Of a stretch of DNA of 64,000 nt, positions 12,343 to 20,519 are shown piece after piece. The notes below the pieces were generated by a model that was not told the origin of the DNA, made no database searches, and saw only the letters and a program-made list of their open reading frames with translations. The stretch is from Escherichia phage vB_EcoM_EP32a. Numbering within the stretch: the stretch's first letter is position 1; every line of letters starts with the position of its first letter. The position numbers were made by a program, and so were the translations under genes. The DNA is taken from sequence record OR544954; one strand, written 5' to 3'.

Positions 12343-12416
12343 AAGTTATTTAGGCCCTGTAGCTCAATGGTTAGCAGCAGTCCCCTCATAAGGGAAAGGT
12401 TACCAGTTCGAATCTG
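12343..12416 (+). tRNA. tRNA with CAU anticodon (Met or Ile2), no encoded CCA
   Basis: Anticodon stem TCCC/GGGA with loop CTCATAA; T-arm ACCAG-TTCGAAT-CTGGT; acceptor pairing is imperfect. Confidence 0.55.
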
Positions 12417-12432
12417 GTCTGGGTCATATATT

Positions 12433-12509
<77 letters not shown>

Positions 12510-14074: not shown

Positions 14075-14668
14075 ATGAACACACTGAAGAAACTTGTTGA
14101 ATTCATCCGCACTAAACTGGGTACTGCTATGGCTAAAAATCTGACTGTCGAAGAACAGTATAACGCAGCTGCAGATAAGTTGATTACCCAAATCAAAGAA
14201 CTAAAAACGGCTTCTGTTAAATCTATTAATGAAGAAAAACGTATTCGCGAACTTGTTAATGAAAAGAATAAGCAAGCCGCTTCTAAGGAACGTGAAATTC
14301 GTAAGCTCCTGGCTGAAGGACAAGATGTTACTATGCATGCTAAGCTTGGTCTTCTGTATCGTCGAACTGCCGAACAACTTAATACAAAAGCTGACGGGTA
14401 TGCCGCTATGCGAATTGAAATTGCTCGTAAGGTGGTTGAACTTGATGATGCTCGTCAGAATCTGGCAATCAAACTCGAATACATTCGTGAAACTCGAGCA
14501 GCCAATGCCCTTGGTATCTCTACGGCTGATGATGTAATTGAAATCGCTGCACTGACTAAGGTTGATATCGAAGACACTCTGACTCGTGTTGAAACGTTCA
14601 ATGGCACTCCAGCCGGTGTCGAAACCACTTCTGCTGATGTACAAGAATATATTAACTCTTTGAAATAA
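14075..14668 (+). CDS. hypothetical coiled-coil protein
   Basis: 197 aa, alpha-helical and charged. Confidence 0.55.
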
Positions 14669-14717
14669 AATAATACGGAGGACTCCGGTCCTCCTTTTGG
14701 ATAATAAAGGAGTTAAC

Positions 14718-15320
14718 ATGCGAAACCAAAATAATGATATTGACTCAATGTTCGAAGAGTTCCGAAATAAGGTAAATCCACCTACGTCTTTAGTTGATTC
14801 ATTACGATATGTTGCAACTGGACGTAAATGGTACTGGTCGTCTTCTTATGAGACTACTGAGAAAACGGCCAGCCATAGCAGAAAATCTTTATTAGCCCCA
14901 GGTATTATGATTCATGATATCGGAGCTATTGCTAAACTAGTTGCAGACCATGATATTAGATTCACTGATTTCGTTGCTCCTACGTGGTCTGTTTGTTGTT
15001 TAAACACTGAATGGGAATATATCAGCGAACGCTCTAAAGATTATTATGGTTTTAGAGACAAGCTTTTAAGGTCTAACATGTTTTATATTGATACAGAAGT
15101 TCTGGTCAATAATAAAAAATACTACTTCACTTTAATCATCGATTCTGAAACTATGTATGAAGGCAAGCCTTTGCTTAAGAGAGTTGATGCTTTAAGTGCT
15201 ATTGATGCGCTTTATGAAACTATGGTTGTTAGTCCTAATTTCACTAACAATTTAATCCTTGAGCAATTTATTATGGAATGTAGAGAATATGTCAAAGCCA
15301 ACCCTATACATGCCAAGTAA
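14718..15320 (+). CDS. hypothetical protein
   Basis: ATG after AAGGAG; 200 aa. Confidence 0.55.
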   Translation: MRNQNNDIDSMFEEFRNKVNPPTSLVDSLRYVATGRKWYWSSSYETTEKTASHSRKSLLAPGIMIHDIGAIAKLVADHDIRFTDFVAPTWSVCCLNTEWEYISERSKDYYGFRDKLLRSNMFYIDTEVLVNNKKYYFTLIIDSETMYEGKPLLKRVDALSAIDALYETMVVSPNFTNNLILEQFIMECREYVKANPIHAK

Positions 15321-15684
15321 GCCCTGGGCGTATGAATACAAGCGTAAATTAATCCCAAATGAAGTACTATTTGGCCCTATTTTAGCTTTAGCATTTTTAA
15401 TCTTTATGATTATAGGAGCTGTTTTAGATTCTAGTGAAGTTATATCGTCTGATGCAGCATTTTCATTAATGTTCGTCGCACCACTTATTGTACCGTTTTT
15501 ATTAATGCCTATTAATTGGGTAGGATATTGGCACCAAGGCCGTCATCACAGAGCCCGATTAAGAGAATGGAAAGTTCAGTGCGCAAAAGCCCAAGCTCAG
15601 TATGATGAAGCTGTTAAAAAGTATGAATATGAAGAAGCTATGGAATTCGTTAAGGAAATAAGATGCAAAAGCCTCAACTCTTAA
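15289..15684 (+). CDS. small membrane protein, C-terminal FVKEIRC motif (family member 1)
   Basis: Hydrophobic N-terminal segment; start uncertain (15289 or 15310). Confidence 0.45.
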   Translation: MSKPTLYMPSKPWAYEYKRKLIPNEVLFGPILALAFLIFMIIGAVLDSSEVISSDAAFSLMFVAPLIVPFLLMPINWVGYWHQGRHHRARLREWKVQCAKAQAQYDEAVKKYEYEEAMEFVKEIRCKSLNS

Positions 15685-16022
15685 CCGTATGGCCTTCTCT
15701 TGGTGAGAACATTCTAATTTTTATTATGAGTATTGGCATGGGATTTGCCTTTGGATTAGTTGGATTTCTTATTGACGGCGTTGTGTTAGGATTTATAGGG
15801 AACACTGGTGGATTCACAGACCAATGGCAGGACTTACGGTACACCCAAGCCTTTGCATCCATCGCATCATTTTGTACTGTAGTCTATTTTTACTACGATT
15901 TTATAAACCACAACAAGAAAAATAAAAAGGTTTACGCTTCTCAAATGATTAGTTATAATGAACTCCTAGCTAGACGTGAAAATGAAACAATCGAAAACTT
16001 TATTAAGGAATGTAGAAAATGA
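15663..16022 (+). CDS. small membrane protein, C-terminal NFIKECR motif (family member 2)
   Basis: TM-like segments, then ...ENFIKECRK. Confidence 0.55.
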   Translation: MQKPQLLTVWPSLGENILIFIMSIGMGFAFGLVGFLIDGVVLGFIGNTGGFTDQWQDLRYTQAFASIASFCTVVYFYYDFINHNKKNKKVYASQMISYNELLARRENETIENFIKECRK

Positions 16023-16324
16023 GTAAGATTATTGAAATTAAAGTACCAGAGTTTAATGATGCCAAATCCGCTTCAGATGCAATTTATAAACTTCTGAATC
16101 AAGCTGAACGTATCGAAGAAGAAGCAACAAAGATCGCAGACCAATATGCCGTATCATTTTCTGTAGGTGATTATGGTAGCGGTCGTACTTATTATCCTAA
16201 GGGTGAAATCGTATCCCAGTGGATGAAAGATGAAATTGAAAATAATGGCGGCGATGTTAAGCGTGAAGGTAATGGATACGTTATTACTGAAGGTGCTTGG
16301 GTTTCGTCTTCTGCGTTGTGCTAA
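16019..16324 (+). CDS. small protein, C-terminal GAWVSSSALC (paralog 1 of 3)
   Basis: 101 aa; tandem with 16334 and 16616. Confidence 0.55.
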   Translation: MSKIIEIKVPEFNDAKSASDAIYKLLNQAERIEEEATKIADQYAVSFSVGDYGSGRTYYPKGEIVSQWMKDEIENNGGDVKREGNGYVITEGAWVSSSALC

Positions 16325-16333
16325 GGAATCATT

Positions 16334-16606
16334 ATGTCTAAAGAACAAACCGAACTGGCTGAAGCTGTAGCAAAAATCTATGCAGCTATTGAGGCTGCCA
16401 AAGAAATTGCTGATAAACAAAACACAACATTCAACTTGTACCCAGCTTATGGTATGGGTGGAACCTATCATTCACCCGGACATCTTAAAGCCGATCTTGA
16501 ACGTTGTACAAAAAACGGCTATGCTGAATGGGCTGACGTTTACCAATACGACTACAACCTGAGCCTCGAAACTGGTGGTTGGGTCGCATCTTCTCACACT
16601 TGCTAA
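16334..16606 (+). CDS. small protein, C-terminal GGWVASSHTC (paralog 2 of 3)
   Basis: 90 aa. Confidence 0.55.
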   Translation: MSKEQTELAEAVAKIYAAIEAAKEIADKQNTTFNLYPAYGMGGTYHSPGHLKADLERCTKNGYAEWADVYQYDYNLSLETGGWVASSHTC

Positions 16607-16615
16607 GGAAACAAT

Positions 16616-16813
16616 ATGTCTCGTGAATTAGATTGTGCTGTACGTACGGCAGTAGCTGCTCTGGAAAACCTGTTCCAAATTGCAACAGAAGAACGCGAAG
16701 AAGTTACATTATGGATTGAAGATAACGCAGGTCTGAATCTCCAGGACGCGATCTCATTATCCCACAATAGTATCACTGTTCAAGGCTGGGTATCATCTAG
16801 TTATTCTTGCTAA
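16616..16813 (+). CDS. small protein, C-terminal QGWVSSSYSC (paralog 3 of 3)
   Basis: 65 aa. Confidence 0.55.
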   Translation: MSRELDCAVRTAVAALENLFQIATEEREEVTLWIEDNAGLNLQDAISLSHNSITVQGWVSSSYSC

Positions 16814-16815
16814 AA

Positions 16816-16856
16816 CAGTTTACAACAAGATAGGGCTATGTTATAGTAGTCCTATC
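16816..16856 (+). promoter_or_regulatory. T4-type early promoter with flanking inverted repeat
   Basis: GTTTACA ... TATAGT in palindrome ATAGGGCTA/TAGTCCTAT. Confidence 0.5.
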
Positions 16857-16875
16857 AAAACAAATGGAGTCCACA

Positions 16876-17115
16876 ATGATTTATTACGAAAGTATCGGAA
16901 CCAAAGTGGTTGGCAAAACCATTACTCGTGAAAAGTTTGCAAAGATATTCGATATGCGTTATAAAAAATCTGAACACAAAGGCATCCGATTCGAAGATGC
17001 GCACTGTACAATTTGCCCTTATAATGAAGACATAAACGGTACAATCGTTCCATTGGTAGAAGCTTCACATGATGACCTCTGGGATGAATATAATATCGCA
17101 TGTCGTGAAATTTAA
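16876..17115 (+). CDS. hypothetical protein
   Basis: ATG after GGAG. Confidence 0.5.
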   Translation: MIYYESIGTKVVGKTITREKFAKIFDMRYKKSEHKGIRFEDAHCTICPYNEDINGTIVPLVEASHDDLWDEYNIACREI

Positions 17116-17143
17116 GTTAATGAATTAATCCGAGGAAAATATT

Positions 17144-18100
17144 ATGATGTTAGTTATTGGTTCTCGTGCACTTCACTATCACGGTCTTATTGATTCTAGC
17201 GCTATCAAAAATAGTGATTGGGACTTTATTGCGGACCAAGGTTCTTGGAATGCATTCAAAAATCAAATGATGGGTGTATATGTCCACCAAGATAACCCTG
17301 ATGTCCAAGTTTTCAAATGCTTCCATAATGGTCGCGAAACTCATTTTGAAGCATATATTGTTCCGGCAATCACTAATGTCCGTGAATTAGTCGGTGAACT
17401 CACTCCTGAAGATTTCACATCTTCTTATGACCTTTTAAAATACGCCAAGAAAAATTTGACTAAAGACCGTTTGAACGGGTTTTACTGGGCAACTCCTGAG
17501 ATATGTCTTGCAATTAAGATGTCTCATCGTTTCAAGAAAAATAATCCATTCTTTTTAAAGACTATGAACCATATTCAGTATCTTCGTGGTAAAGGTGTTA
17601 CACTGAACGATGAACTTACTGAAATTATGCTGAAACGCCAAAAAGAAACTTTGAACTATGCTCACCCTGTTCTTGACACTTCTAAAAGTGCGTTCTTTAA
17701 AGATGACATCTATACATATGACCATGATACTATTCACGAAGCCATTGCACTAACAGACCGTCCGGCTTATATGTTTTACATGAAAGATGGTTCTGAAGTC
17801 ATGACCTCACGCGAGAAGTTCGAATCATTACCGGAAATGGTCAAATTGGCCGGTGTATATGAAGAATCATGTGTACTAGCATTAGAACGTTCTCAGATTC
17901 CTAACGACTTTAAAATCCATCCACGTGATAGTTTTATGATGGCCCTTGAAAAGGTCTGTACATCAATCACATCAGGATGGTTCCGTGAGTTCGCTTGGGA
18001 AAATTATAGCAAAGTAGTAAGTATGTACCAAAGCTTAGGACACGACGATTACGTCAAGCGTTTCAAACAAAACTTTCATATGGTAAAACCTTTCAAATAA
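17144..18100 (+). CDS. hypothetical 318-aa protein
   Basis: Long ORF in the hyperplastic region; no family recognised by eye. Confidence 0.6.
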   Translation: MMLVIGSRALHYHGLIDSSAIKNSDWDFIADQGSWNAFKNQMMGVYVHQDNPDVQVFKCFHNGRETHFEAYIVPAITNVRELVGELTPEDFTSSYDLLKYAKKNLTKDRLNGFYWATPEICLAIKMSHRFKKNNPFFLKTMNHIQYLRGKGVTLNDELTEIMLKRQKETLNYAHPVLDTSKSAFFKDDIYTYDHDTIHEAIALTDRPAYMFYMKDGSEVMTSREKFESLPEMVKLAGVYEESCVLALERSQIPNDFKIHPRDSFMMALEKVCTSITSGWFREFAWENYSKVVSMYQSLGHDDYVKRFKQNFHMVKPFK

Positions 18101-18110
18101 TTTCACAAAA

Positions 18111-18150
18111 CAGTTTACAAGGTCTGTAGTTGTTGATACTATAGACCTAT
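18111..18150 (+). promoter_or_regulatory. T4-type early promoter with flanking inverted repeat
   Basis: GTTTACA ... TACTAT; AGGTCT/AGACCT. Confidence 0.5.
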
Positions 18151-18180
18151 CAAAACAAATGAGTGAATGGAGATATAAAA

Positions 18181-18381
18181 ATGACTACTTTGAATAAACG
18201 TTTCGGTAAAGCTAAACCTGGTTGTGCAGCAGAACGTCGTTATGTTTTCGCTCAGTTAGAAGATGTAGAGTATCAGATTAATCAAGTTCACATTACTGGT
18301 ATCGAGCCTATGTGTGGCCTTGAAGCTCTTCGTGAAGTTCGTGATGGGTATCGTCGTGACATCGAAGAAATGTCAAAATAA
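18181..18381 (+). CDS. hypothetical protein
   Basis: 66 aa. Confidence 0.5.
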   Translation: MTTLNKRFGKAKPGCAAERRYVFAQLEDVEYQINQVHITGIEPMCGLEALREVRDGYRRDIEEMSK

Positions 18382-18420
18382 GTGTACAAACTGATAGGAC
18401 TATGTTATAGTAGTCCTATT
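18382..18420 (+). promoter_or_regulatory. T4-type early promoter with flanking inverted repeat
   Basis: GTGTACA ... TATAGT in palindrome. Confidence 0.5.
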
Positions 18421-18439
18421 AAAACATGAGGAGAATATT

Positions 18440-18745
18440 ATGAAATTAGGCGAAACCAACCGAATTGGTCTTTTAACAATATTTGTATCACTTTTTTACG
18501 CAGCTCTTTCTGTTGCAGTATTACAAAAGGCTTACAGTATGGATGGTGTTCCTGGTTGTATATTTTTATCACCATTTTTGCTATTCGTTGGAGCTTTGTT
18601 ATTATATGCCACGTCTGGTTTCGACAATAATGTCTGGGTCAATTATAAACGTAAATTGTCTGAAGAAGAACACGCAGAAGCTCGTAAAAAAGCTATTGAA
18701 TCTACCAATCTAGAAAATTTCATTAAAGAATGTCGAGGAAAATAA
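18440..18745 (+). CDS. small membrane protein, C-terminal NFIKECR motif (family member 3)
   Basis: Two hydrophobic segments, then ...LENFIKECRGK. Confidence 0.55.
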   Translation: MKLGETNRIGLLTIFVSLFYAALSVAVLQKAYSMDGVPGCIFLSPFLLFVGALLLYATSGFDNNVWVNYKRKLSEEEHAEARKKAIESTNLENFIKECRGK

Positions 18746-18789
18746 TATGAATAGTTCTAAAGTGTTTAATAGTCAAGCTCGTGCAGTAG

Positions 18790-19347
18790 GTGGTTTTGCT
18801 CACGCGATTAAAAATGACCAGATTAAAAACGAGCCTATGTTCTTCAACTGTAGTATTTGATTCACGAGTCCATATGCTGATGCCTGGTTGGTATCCTGCT
18901 ATTCCAGGTTATCACCATGACGATGTACCACGCCCGGATATTCCAGTTGGTCAACACTTTATTACTGCAGGACAACCTGACTATGACAATCCTCGCTATT
19001 TGTCTGAACACATTCTTGGTCTTGTTAACGCTGATGTGTGTCCTACTCATTTTGCAACAGGAACTGCAGAGTTCAGTCAGATTCCTGATGGCGAACTTAT
19101 CTATCGCCAGTGGCACAAAGAAGTCCTCGAAAAAATCGAAAAAGGTGAACTAGAGAAATGGGAAGCTCCGGACCGTACTCTTCTTCAGTTTGATTGGCAA
19201 ACATGGCACACTGGTTCTCGTGCAATTAGTAATGGATGGCGTTGGTTCGGACGTGTATCTCGTAATACAGACCGAGTTAAAAAGATTACCAATGAAATTC
19301 GTGTCAATGCTCAAGTTTATCTGGAATTCCCTATGGAAGGCTGGTAA
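18790..19347 (+). CDS. hypothetical protein (start uncertain; possible frameshifted N-terminus)
   Basis: ORF in a +1 frame relative to the short ORF 18747-18860 that has the good start context. Confidence 0.4.
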   Translation: MVLLTRLKMTRLKTSLCSSTVVFDSRVHMLMPGWYPAIPGYHHDDVPRPDIPVGQHFITAGQPDYDNPRYLSEHILGLVNADVCPTHFATGTAEFSQIPDGELIYRQWHKEVLEKIEKGELEKWEAPDRTLLQFDWQTWHTGSRAISNGWRWFGRVSRNTDRVKKITNEIRVNAQVYLEFPMEGW

Positions 19348-19838
19348 TGATTAACAAAACATATTGGTCTAATATTGACGACGGCAATGAAGGTATTTCA
19401 TACTATTCAGTAGATTGGACAGGATGTCCATCCTACTTAGTGAAACGTATTTGCCAAGAATTTAAAATCGACCAGCCAGCAGGTATTATCGTGAACAGAT
19501 ACATTAATGGATATCAACCTATCGATGAAGTAATACGAACAACTCAAGCTGAGCTTGAAAAGTTTTTCAATAAGTGCCAATGGATAACAGGATGGATTAT
19601 ATTTGTACCGTCTATATGGTTTTTCAGTACTAAGGTGAGTTCTTTCGGTTTTGTTGATATTATTGCTATCTTATTAGCATCTACTATCGTAAGTATTATT
19701 GGCGGTATAATTGGTGGAGGTACTGTAGGCATCATTATTAATCTTATTAAAAGTAGTTTACAAGAACATAAAGACAAGATAAAAGCCAAGAATAATGAAG
19801 TTGAACGTTTTATTACCGAATGCAGGAATTTGAGATGA
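19347..19838 (+). CDS. membrane protein, C-terminal RFITECR motif (family member 4)
   Basis: Hydrophobic core with GGIIGGG, then ...VERFITECRNLR. Confidence 0.55.
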   Translation: MINKTYWSNIDDGNEGISYYSVDWTGCPSYLVKRICQEFKIDQPAGIIVNRYINGYQPIDEVIRTTQAELEKFFNKCQWITGWIIFVPSIWFFSTKVSSFGFVDIIAILLASTIVSIIGGIIGGGTVGIIINLIKSSLQEHKDKIKAKNNEVERFITECRNLR

Positions 19839-20071
19839 GTATAGCAATTTACATTAAATCAGAATCATGTGATAGTTATCTGTACACATACGATAAAGAT
19901 GTGTCAGAAGAAAAAATCAAAGACGACCTTAATACGGATCTTGATATGTTCTGTCCTATTGCAGATTACAAACTTGCGGTCTCTAATAGTGAAAGTCCAT
20001 CTAAAGAAACGCGCATTGAAGAATTTATGTCCGAATTAATGGCCAAATCATGGGACCGAGATGATGAGTAA
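19835..20071 (+). CDS. hypothetical protein
   Basis: 78 aa. Confidence 0.45.
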   Translation: MSIAIYIKSESCDSYLYTYDKDVSEEKIKDDLNTDLDMFCPIADYKLAVSNSESPSKETRIEEFMSELMAKSWDRDDE

Positions 20072-20519
20072 GAAAAATAAAGTGAAAGAACTATCAGCCG
20101 GTATTATTTTCCTTACCGAAGATAAAGAATTATTCATGGGGCGTGTAACTGGTTCTCGTCCTAAAGGTTCTTTAGCTCATCGCTGGGATATTCCTAAAGG
20201 ACGTGTCGAGCCCGGTGAATCTCCTATTGAAGCCGCTATTCGCGAATGCGAAGAAGAAACTGGGTTTACACAATATGACCCTGCCTTCCTGAAAGACCTA
20301 GGTGAACATCATTACTCAGACAATAAGAATATTCATCTGTTCCTATATACCATCCCTGTAGAGCACGAGCAATTCAGAAACAGTGCTTGTAATTCCTATC
20401 ATACATTCCCAGACGGACGACAGATTCCTGAATTTGATGCGTTCGCTTTAATTAAACCTTCTCAATGGGAATATGTAATGGGCAAATCATTATATAAGGT
20501 GCTCACTACCCTCCTATAA
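20061..20519 (+). CDS. nudE: Nudix hydrolase NudE (e.1)
   Basis: Nudix box GRVEPGESPIEAAIRECEEETGF; directly upstream of e. Confidence 0.85.
   Translation: MMSKKNKVKELSAGIIFLTEDKELFMGRVTGSRPKGSLAHRWDIPKGRVEPGESPIEAAIRECEEETGFTQYDPAFLKDLGEHHYSDNKNIHLFLYTIPVEHEQFRNSACNSYHTFPDGRQIPEFDAFALIKPSQWEYVMGKSLYKVLTTLL

Follow-up and report, generated by a model that had tools for sequence, protein, structure and literature searches.

What could a phage gain from three adjacent small genes whose products end in nearly the same peptide? This question is raised by a 64,000-nucleotide stretch of Escherichia phage vB_EcoM_EP32a (sequence record OR544954; the whole stretch is called the window below), in which three open reading frames (ORFs) of 101, 90 and 65 amino acids, ORF1, ORF2 and ORF3, end in GAWVSSSALC, GGWVASSHTC and QGWVSSSYSC, respectively. 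A sequence-only reading of the window had described these three tandem ORFs and their C-termini, in exact agreement with the ORF listing, and had proposed a fast-evolving effector family. It had overlooked the linkage of the small genes to a nucleotidyltransferase gene. Given that linkage, the most likely reading is no longer one of free-standing effectors and becomes one of enzyme partners. We find that the small family and the nucleotidyltransferase very probably constitute an obligate gene module with a fixed order and strand.

Linkage of the small genes to a nucleotidyltransferase gene

In the window, the nucleotidyltransferase gene (17144-18100) starts ~330 nucleotides (nt) downstream of the trio. 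A homologue of it (E values of 1e-81 to 1e-223) was found after the small-gene array, within ~1.5 kb, in all 12 annotated loci reached from ORF1, including those of a phi92-like Justusliebigvirus, a Muldoonvirus and Aeromonas phages; in the Aeromonas phages, the surroundings are nrdD/nrdC and not e.2/e.3.

The pairing was surveyed from both sides. From the enzyme side, small members were sought within 4 kb (E ≤ 1e-3) at 80 nucleotidyltransferase loci from IMG/VR, and at least one was present in 71 of the 80. Four to five of the remaining nine loci hold divergent members (ending in NWDSSTC, DWDSSSANC or GWDSSSC) that abut the enzyme start. The 186 small members of the IMG/VR loci, which number one to six per locus and most often two, are all on the enzyme strand; 182 lie upstream of the enzyme gene and a single one downstream of it. 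A terminal Cys is present in 182. From the small-family side, the pattern YGMGGTY, taken from the sub-alignment of type B (the type of ORF2, ORF1 and ORF3 representing types A and C), led to 35 loci. The nucleotidyltransferase lies within 1.4 kb in 33 of these, and the other two contigs end <100 nt past the last small gene. In three out of three distant metagenomic contigs, two of them high-GC, the enzyme comes directly after the small gene, with overlapping stop and start codons. The pairing also occurs in Otagovirus, Menderavirus (array downstream), the jumbo Mimasvirus XbC2 and Lazarusvirus.

Stenotrophomonas phage Ps15 (locus L020, 4102-4957) carries its small members downstream of the nucleotidyltransferase, the only clear inversion of the order that was seen.

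The whole T4 genome contains neither the small family nor the nucleotidyltransferase, the only match being a 13.8-bit one to Tk.1 without the tail; T4 nrdC.3, considered as a homologue, is similar in size and unrelated. The small-family pattern was not found in 185,579 cellular species genomes. In the same set, the nucleotidyltransferase was detected in five contigs of metagenome-assembled genomes only, four of them with small members upstream.

The association is asymmetric: no small gene was found without the nucleotidyltransferase, and the nucleotidyltransferase is sometimes found without small genes, namely in four related IMG/VR loci (of 80) and in two actinophages. In the four IMG/VR loci, the catalytic residues of the enzyme are kept and a protein of 177-178 amino acids ending in QQH or KQH is encoded upstream (for example, L067 3425-3961 and L094 3208-3741); it may be an alternative partner. 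The actinophages, Arthrobacter phage Atuin (L023 2851-3618) and Gordonia phage Cucurbita (L024 2809-3600), each encode a shorter and distantly related homologue of the enzyme, with tRNA genes around or beside it; no small Cys-tailed partner was found near the homologue at either locus.

A putatively active nucleotidyltransferase with an extra domain

In an alignment of 55 homologues of the enzyme, G6, S7, D25, D27 and E69 are invariant and correspond to the Pol-beta signature G-S...D-x-D...acidic, as is a MenT-like K..R motif; K125, H128 and R129 are invariant or nearly so. The features sought for a MenT/AbiEii assignment, i.e., the Pol-beta fold, the G-S...D-x-D motif, a third acidic residue and a downstream Lys motif, were all found. 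The Pfam family DUF1814/AbiEii gave no match to the 55-sequence alignment, even at E ≤ 1, and no sequence relative of the nucleotidyltransferase was found in the PDB. Its fold matches transferases acting on hydroxyl groups. The helical C-terminal domain (DUF7275) carries many invariant His, Asp and Cys residues, including two invariant Cys. We read the protein as a MenT/AbiEii/ANT-type nucleotidyltransferase that looks active and carries an additional domain.

The nucleotidyltransferase is widespread, with ~2,100 homologous clusters and at least 734 phage records. The hosts of the phages that encode it include Escherichia, Klebsiella, Acinetobacter, Aeromonas, Pseudomonas, Vibrio, Stenotrophomonas and Xanthomonas. 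There are hints that the enzyme family may have a tRNA-related activity, because distant homologues sit among tRNA genes.

An ancient phage family with a Cys-terminated tail

Within the window, the pattern W[VIL][SA]SS occurs three times in six frames, each time at the end of one ORF of the trio. Pairwise BLASTP comparisons among the three proteins gave E values of 2e-4, 1e-3 and 3e-4, and a hidden Markov model (HMM) of the family matched ORF1 (4e-23), ORF2 (1.5e-23) and ORF3 (3e-7; 3.4e-7) but no other ORF of the window. The three proteins had no match above noise in Pfam, NCBIfam, PADLOC or the PDB sequences, which bears out the view that this is a single, unrecognised family of paralogues. 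Weak matches to Peptidase_S78_2, E217_Gp32, the MscS C-terminal domain and designed proteins were not consistent across members and were rejected. With the PADLOC profiles, no significant match was obtained for the 83-aa ORF of the same locus (aa, amino acids) or for the nucleotidyltransferase either.

The only matches of the trio were to two profile HMMs annotated as of "unknown function", PHROG 899 (ORF1, E 1.3e-22; ORF2, E 5e-19) and PHROG 4882 (ORF3, E 7.7e-37). Among 39 aligned homologues, 37 match one of the two (32 to PHROG 899 and five to PHROG 4882). These automatic clusters, over which the family is split, come without a function, a description of the C-terminal motif or a link to the nucleotidyltransferase.

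A tblastn search with ORF1 identified 394 phage records (Mosigvirus, Dhakavirus, Karamvirus, Kanagawavirus, Tulanevirus, Biquartavirus, Ceceduovirus and others). Each phage has two to five tandem members, at least five types being recognisable, with ends of the form W-x-S-S-S-x-x-C or W-x-x-S-S-C. A profile search of 1.84 billion representatives (E ≤ 1e-3) returned 105 clusters at 50% identity, whose members are nearly all 65-135 aa long and are matched by the profile to their last residue.

The tail is the hallmark of the family, as had been suggested for its terminal Cys. In the 39 homologues, which come from 12 phages, no variation is seen at W94, S97 or C101 (ORF1 numbering) and very little at G92 and S98. 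Among 139 family sequences, 134 end in Cys, which is the only Cys of 62 members, and the median isoelectric point (pI) is 4.4. ORF1, with a pI of 4.6, also has its single Cys as final residue. Of the 134 Cys-ended members, 85% have W at position -7, 88% have S at -4 and 87% have S at -3. One or two extra internal copies of W-x-S-S-x-C are found in acidic linkers of 29 of the 139 members. The consensus starts with a long N-terminal helix ending in EAExIADE and goes on with a strand F-x-F and a loop, which reads (A)YGMGGTYYP or GDYGSGRTYYP; an acidic segment leads to the closing GGW-h-SSS-x-x-C. The helix is followed by a small beta-sheet, on which most members bear a YG(M/S)GGTYYP loop. Although YGMGGTY is nearly invariant among 35 type-B representatives, the alignment of the whole family has no conserved stretch of 7-10 columns. 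On the basis of these alignments, the family is one of phage-only, small, acidic proteins, predicted to be folded, with the invariant extreme C-terminus G-x-W-h-S-S-S-x-x-Cys-COOH.

A high-GC metagenomic contig (locus L015, 161-1353) encodes four tandem members, three of them with the tail AGW(V/E)PSGL(N/D)C; hence, the serines are not strictly universal, and the W and the terminal Cys are.

The paralogy of the trio is, from the comparison of identities, genuine and ancient. Orthologues of ORF1 in 10 other phages are 66-36% identical to it (66% in Dhakavirus JS10, 50-53% in Karamvirus and a Klebsiella phage), and the JS10, PEi20 and Kosakonia phage 305 counterparts show 53-58% identity to ORF2 and 57-65% to ORF3. 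Orthologues of the types occur in Dhakavirus, Karamvirus, Kanagawavirus and Klebsiella phages. In contrast, the three paralogues of the window share only 32-34% identity with one another. Because each type has orthologues of 50-66% identity elsewhere and the paralogues are so much further apart, the duplications predate the divergence of the phage genera. The terms "fast-evolving" and "tandem diversification" used previously do not fit these values, nor the ≥99% identity to ORF1 found in 126 phage records.

We also considered whether the common tail could be an artefact, with conservation limited to the nucleotides that serve translation initiation downstream, which was the scenario that the sequence-only reading had named as fatal to its own proposal. 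In its favour, TGCTAAGGAA is common to the first two copies: it follows ORF1 and ORF2 and comprises the Cys codon, the stop codon and the Shine-Dalgarno sequence of the next gene, 9 nt ahead of the ATG. This shared Shine-Dalgarno sequence explains the repeat that had been noticed. However, the nucleotides that the copies have in common start at the Cys codon, while the peptide motif reaches seven codons further upstream, and synonymous codons differ there, the Val codons being GTT, GTC and GTA and those of one Ser TCT, TCT and AGT across the three copies. ORF3, which is followed by TGCTAAAACA, keeps the motif with no ribosome-binding site or gene start downstream, and the motif is invariant in homologues of many unrelated phages with differing downstream sequence. 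The artefact is therefore ruled out by the codon comparison.

Predicted structure of the small proteins

The AlphaFold2 model of ORF1 (pLDDT 91.4, pTM 0.78) has a 29-residue N-terminal helix (residues 15-43), in line with the helical N-terminal part expected earlier. No relative of the predicted fold was found in the PDB.

A resemblance to the foldon of T4 fibritin was followed and abandoned. ORF1 residues 79-95 are 41% identical to it, with a local score of 43, the best of 2000 shuffles reaching 42; the foldon stretch G-Q-A-Y-V-R-K-D-G-E-W-V resembles G-N-G-Y-V-I-T-E-G-A-W-V of ORF1, which also comes after a long helix. However, the likeness is at chance level in ORF2 and ORF3 (p 0.43 and 0.79, respectively) and, being confined to ORF1, has no structural support: neither a signature shared by the family nor the beta-hairpin propeller fold of a foldon-like trimerisation domain was found.

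A weak phmmer match of ORF1 residues 55-101 (window 16181-16321) to residues 157-199 of PDB 21vq_M, "Phi92_gp137", is probably due to chance: the E value is 0.13 for the whole sequence and 6.9 for the best stretch alone, the common elements being YPKG and SSATAMC. The phi92-like phages also bear the module of small genes and nucleotidyltransferase.

The small proteins as possible clients of the enzyme

What could the enzyme and its small neighbours do together? Our tentative answer, suggested by the conserved residues and by analogy with other enzymes of this fold, is that the small proteins would be cognate protein clients, i.e., substrates, of the nucleotidyltransferase. The helix and beta core of a small protein would dock on the enzyme, and the exposed Ser/Ser/Cys tail would be the site acted on, most simply through transfer of a nucleoside monophosphate (NMP) to a Ser hydroxyl or the Cys thiol. 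Each type of paralogue, with its own divergent body, could then deliver the modified tail to a different partner. The genes are probably transcribed early or in the middle of infection.

Relatives of this fold nucleotidylate the 3'-OH of tRNA, a hydroxyl of an antibiotic or a protein Tyr. As the enzymes of this fold transfer NMP to hydroxyls, a Ser hydroxyl or Cys thiol would be a chemically plausible acceptor. The client reading is further suggested by the nature of the invariant residues, which are nucleophiles (Ser, Ser, Cys) at the extreme end of the chain, by the recurrence of the motif inside some of the proteins (the 29 members mentioned above), and by the fact that several anciently diverged paralogues have only the core and the tail in common when the enzyme is single-copy. 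Several paralogues next to one enzyme resemble the logic of tandem precursors served by a single enzyme. Finally, small genes that never occur without the enzyme, which itself can lack them, would suit dependent clients better than an obligatory antidote.

Some observations weigh against this interpretation. The characterised MenT-type relatives all act on tRNA, and ANT/Lnu on small molecules; to our knowledge, none modifies a Ser or Cys of a protein. The real substrate of the enzyme may be tRNA, because its distant homologues sit among tRNA genes without small partners. A small gene upstream of the enzyme, and often overlapping it, is an order that would equally suit an antitoxin-like inhibitor such as MenA1, and in the window a promoter-like site and the 83-aa gene divide the array from the enzyme. 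With high confidence, the AlphaFold2 model makes W94-S96 part of the last beta-strand and folds residues 97-100 into a short helix; part of the tail motif may, on this model, be structural and not an exposed acceptor.

That the pair forms a new phage protein-modification system, in which a MenT-fold enzyme covalently modifies the invariant Ser/Ser/Cys tails of several small proteins made by the ribosome, is less likely than not, but a possibility of some weight. The chemistry could be O- or S-nucleotidylation, or nucleotidylation and elimination followed by attack of the terminal Cys, which would give a thioether or AviCys-like end. If true, the phages would deploy a chemically armed family of small proteins as they take over the host. 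Such a system would be without precedent, both for an enzyme of this fold that modifies protein Ser or Cys and for its restriction to lytic phages.

Alternative explanations

The main rival explanation, which we consider possible but rather unlikely, is that the small proteins are antitoxin-like inhibitors or regulators that would bind the nucleotidyltransferase and block or time its activity, as MenA1 does. The Ser/Cys/carboxylate tail might then plug the metal or nucleoside triphosphate site, and the enzyme would act on tRNA 3' ends, in host shut-off or tRNA repair. MenA1, 68 aa long and encoded just upstream of MenT1, inhibits that enzyme by binding it, its long central helix blocking two MenT1 active sites; the C-terminus of MenA1 is dispensable (PMC10435456). 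The gene order of the phage loci is consistent with such a role, with small genes upstream (182 of 183), on the same strand and often overlapping the enzyme start. So are the 29-residue N-terminal helix of ORF1, the low pI of the small proteins, which recalls nucleic-acid mimics, and the nearness of the enzyme to tRNA genes, and a middle-type promoter before the array with a separate early-like promoter before the enzyme (both of them consensus matches) would permit a timed shut-off. Yet one enzyme needs one inhibitor, and two to six anciently diverged types are kept across genera. Moreover, the helix that would inhibit is the variable part of the small proteins, whereas their invariant part is a Ser/Cys tail that is absent from MenA1, and the proteins show no likeness in sequence or fold to MenA1 (including its helix-loop-helix "V" shape) or to any antitoxin. 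An enzyme that retains its catalytic residues in phages lacking the small partners also speaks against an inhibitor.

The small proteins could also be independent effectors or anti-defence proteins, each hitting a host protein, with the enzyme nearby only through shared regulation in a variable accessory region. Their location, among small early and middle genes in the hyperplastic region between e and the tRNA genes of T4-like genomes, would fit, and being small, acidic and absent from T4 they look like typical accessory genes for host takeover; in Mosigvirus, the unrelated 83-aa gene and the promoter-like site even separate the trio from the enzyme. We nevertheless judge this improbable. The adjacency is kept in Straboviridae, Stephanstirmvirinae, Otagovirus, Menderavirus, the jumbo Mimasvirus and high-GC contigs despite different surroundings, the genes keep to one strand and order, none of the small genes was seen without the enzyme, and the family is not fast-evolving. 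Very improbable, in our view, is a module for oligomerisation or metal binding, in which a foldon-like G-x-W-V...C hairpin would join the terminal Cys of several chains, or those of one chain and the enzyme, for a metal or a disulfide and the tail would be structural. It could draw on the foldon alignment of ORF1, on the position of the tail after a beta-hairpin in the AlphaFold2 model, and on the two invariant Cys and several invariant His of the C-terminal domain of the enzyme; against it, the foldon likeness does not extend to ORF2 and ORF3, and 62 of the 139 members have one Cys only.

Comparison with known systems

The closest known system is MenAT1 (MenA1-MenT1) of Mycobacterium tuberculosis, a toxin-antitoxin pair of the wider MenT/AbiEii (DUF1814) nucleotidyltransferase family, with which the phage module has in common the enzyme fold and an upstream gene for a short, long-helix protein on the same strand. 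The phage loci differ in having one to six paralogous partners with the invariant end W-x-S-S-S-x-x-Cys and an enzyme with a large extra helical domain, DUF7275, and no match to DUF1814. The phage module also occurs in lytic phages, and cellular genomes essentially lack it.

Lanthipeptide and AviCys clusters offer a second likeness, with tandem small genes by one enzyme gene, a Ser/Cys-rich end, a terminal Cys and a Ser at -3; the precursor of epidermin, an AviCys peptide, ends in S-x-x-Cys. However, the phage small proteins are predicted to be folded (pLDDT 91) and do not consist of a leader and a disordered core, and compared with most leader/core systems their conserved and variable parts are swapped. 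A Pfam scan of 15 neighbouring proteins (14075-20516) found no LanB, LanM, LanKC, LanL, LanD, YcaO or radical-SAM protein, the only matches being DUF7275/7277 and NUDIX, and we know of no nucleotidyltransferase that makes products of the lanthipeptide/AviCys type.

In MntA-HepT, GlnD-PII and GlnE, Pol-beta enzymes transfer NMP to a hydroxyl of a small partner from the same locus or regulon. Those enzymes modify Tyr on unrelated folds, whereas modification of the phage tail is hypothetical, and no similarity of the small proteins to HepT or PII was found.

Literature searches on DUF7275, DUF7277, the RB69 ORF names and phage nucleotidyltransferases with a C-terminal cysteine found no relevant publication, on either component of the module. 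A survey of jumbo phages (PMC7824862) describes other nucleotidyltransferases (RlaP) and not the DUF7277/DUF7275 one. The gene linkage points to the nucleotidyltransferase and the small Cys-tailed proteins being an undescribed two-part phage module.

The closest structural relatives of the enzyme are bacterial toxins that disable tRNA and play a part in abortive infection. A phage-borne version with dedicated small partners bears on how phages control or counter immunity that targets translation. A strictly conserved terminal Cys after invariant serines is chemically unusual. Should the small proteins turn out to be inhibitors, the module would still be new, as a MenAT-like pair encoded by phages whose antitoxin-like partner has a novel fold.

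Layout and surroundings of the locus

At 99.9% identity, the window segment matches Shigella phage JK36 and further phages of the genus Mosigvirus (RB69-like, T4-type), to which the window belongs. Its three small genes correspond to RB69ORF139c to 136c and lie between e.3 and e.2; the annotated relatives list them as "hypothetical protein". The features of the locus are collected in Table 1.

Table 1 Features of the small-gene and nucleotidyltransferase locus, in window coordinates.
Feature	Position	Strand	Basis and remarks
Small paralogue 1, 101 aa (type A)	16019-16324	+	ORF listing; GDYGSGRTYYP loop; RB69ORF139c
Small paralogue 2, 90 aa (type B)	16334-16606	+	ORF listing; AYGMGGTYHSP loop; commonest type in metagenomes
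Small paralogue 3, 65 aa (type C)	16616-16813	+	ORF listing; minimal form without Gly-rich loop
Tail W-V-S-S-S-A-L-C of paralogue 1	16298-16321	+	Counterparts at 16580-16603 (paralogue 2) and 16787-16810 (paralogue 3)
Stop codon, Shine-Dalgarno (TAAGGAA) and spacer for next paralogue	16322-16333	+	Sequence reading; same layout at 16604-16615
Promoter-like site TTTACG-17-TATAAT	15931-15959	+	Consensus scan; within 3' end of e.3, just ahead of paralogue 1
Promoter-like site TTTACA-17-TATAGT	16819-16847		Consensus scan; ahead of 83-aa ORF and nucleotidyltransferase
Intervening 83-aa ORF, three Cys	16864-17115	+	PHROG 3723 (unknown function); between array and nucleotidyltransferase in Mosigvirus only
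Nucleotidyltransferase, 318 aa, proposed partner enzyme	17144-18100	+	Pfam DUF7277 and DUF7275; RB69ORF134c

In the sequence ATGA, the start codon of ORF1 overlaps with the stop codon of e.3, a membrane-protein gene upstream. Between the ORFs of the trio, a TAA is followed by a 9-nt spacer containing GGA(A) and then by the ATG. The three ORFs share one reading frame, and readthrough of the stop codons would fuse them all, which is probably incidental.

Both promoter-like sites are consensus matches only; in the annotation of phage SA35RD, the one at 15931-15959 is a T4 middle-type promoter. It is doubtful that the 83-aa ORF belongs to the module, because it is present at that position in Mosigvirus only. 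In other phages, its place is taken by other small genes or by none, and the array often abuts or overlaps the nucleotidyltransferase gene directly.

Genes for tRNA-Met (CAT) and tRNA-Arg (TCT) are located at 12353-12509 of the window, ~3.5 kb upstream of the trio. The module is flanked by two predicted membrane proteins (15663-16022 and 18440-18745) that end in IENFIKECRK and LENFIKECRGK. Their genes differ by synonymous codons in this part, the stop codon of each overlaps or abuts the next start, and the two have the look of e.2/e.3-type paralogues.

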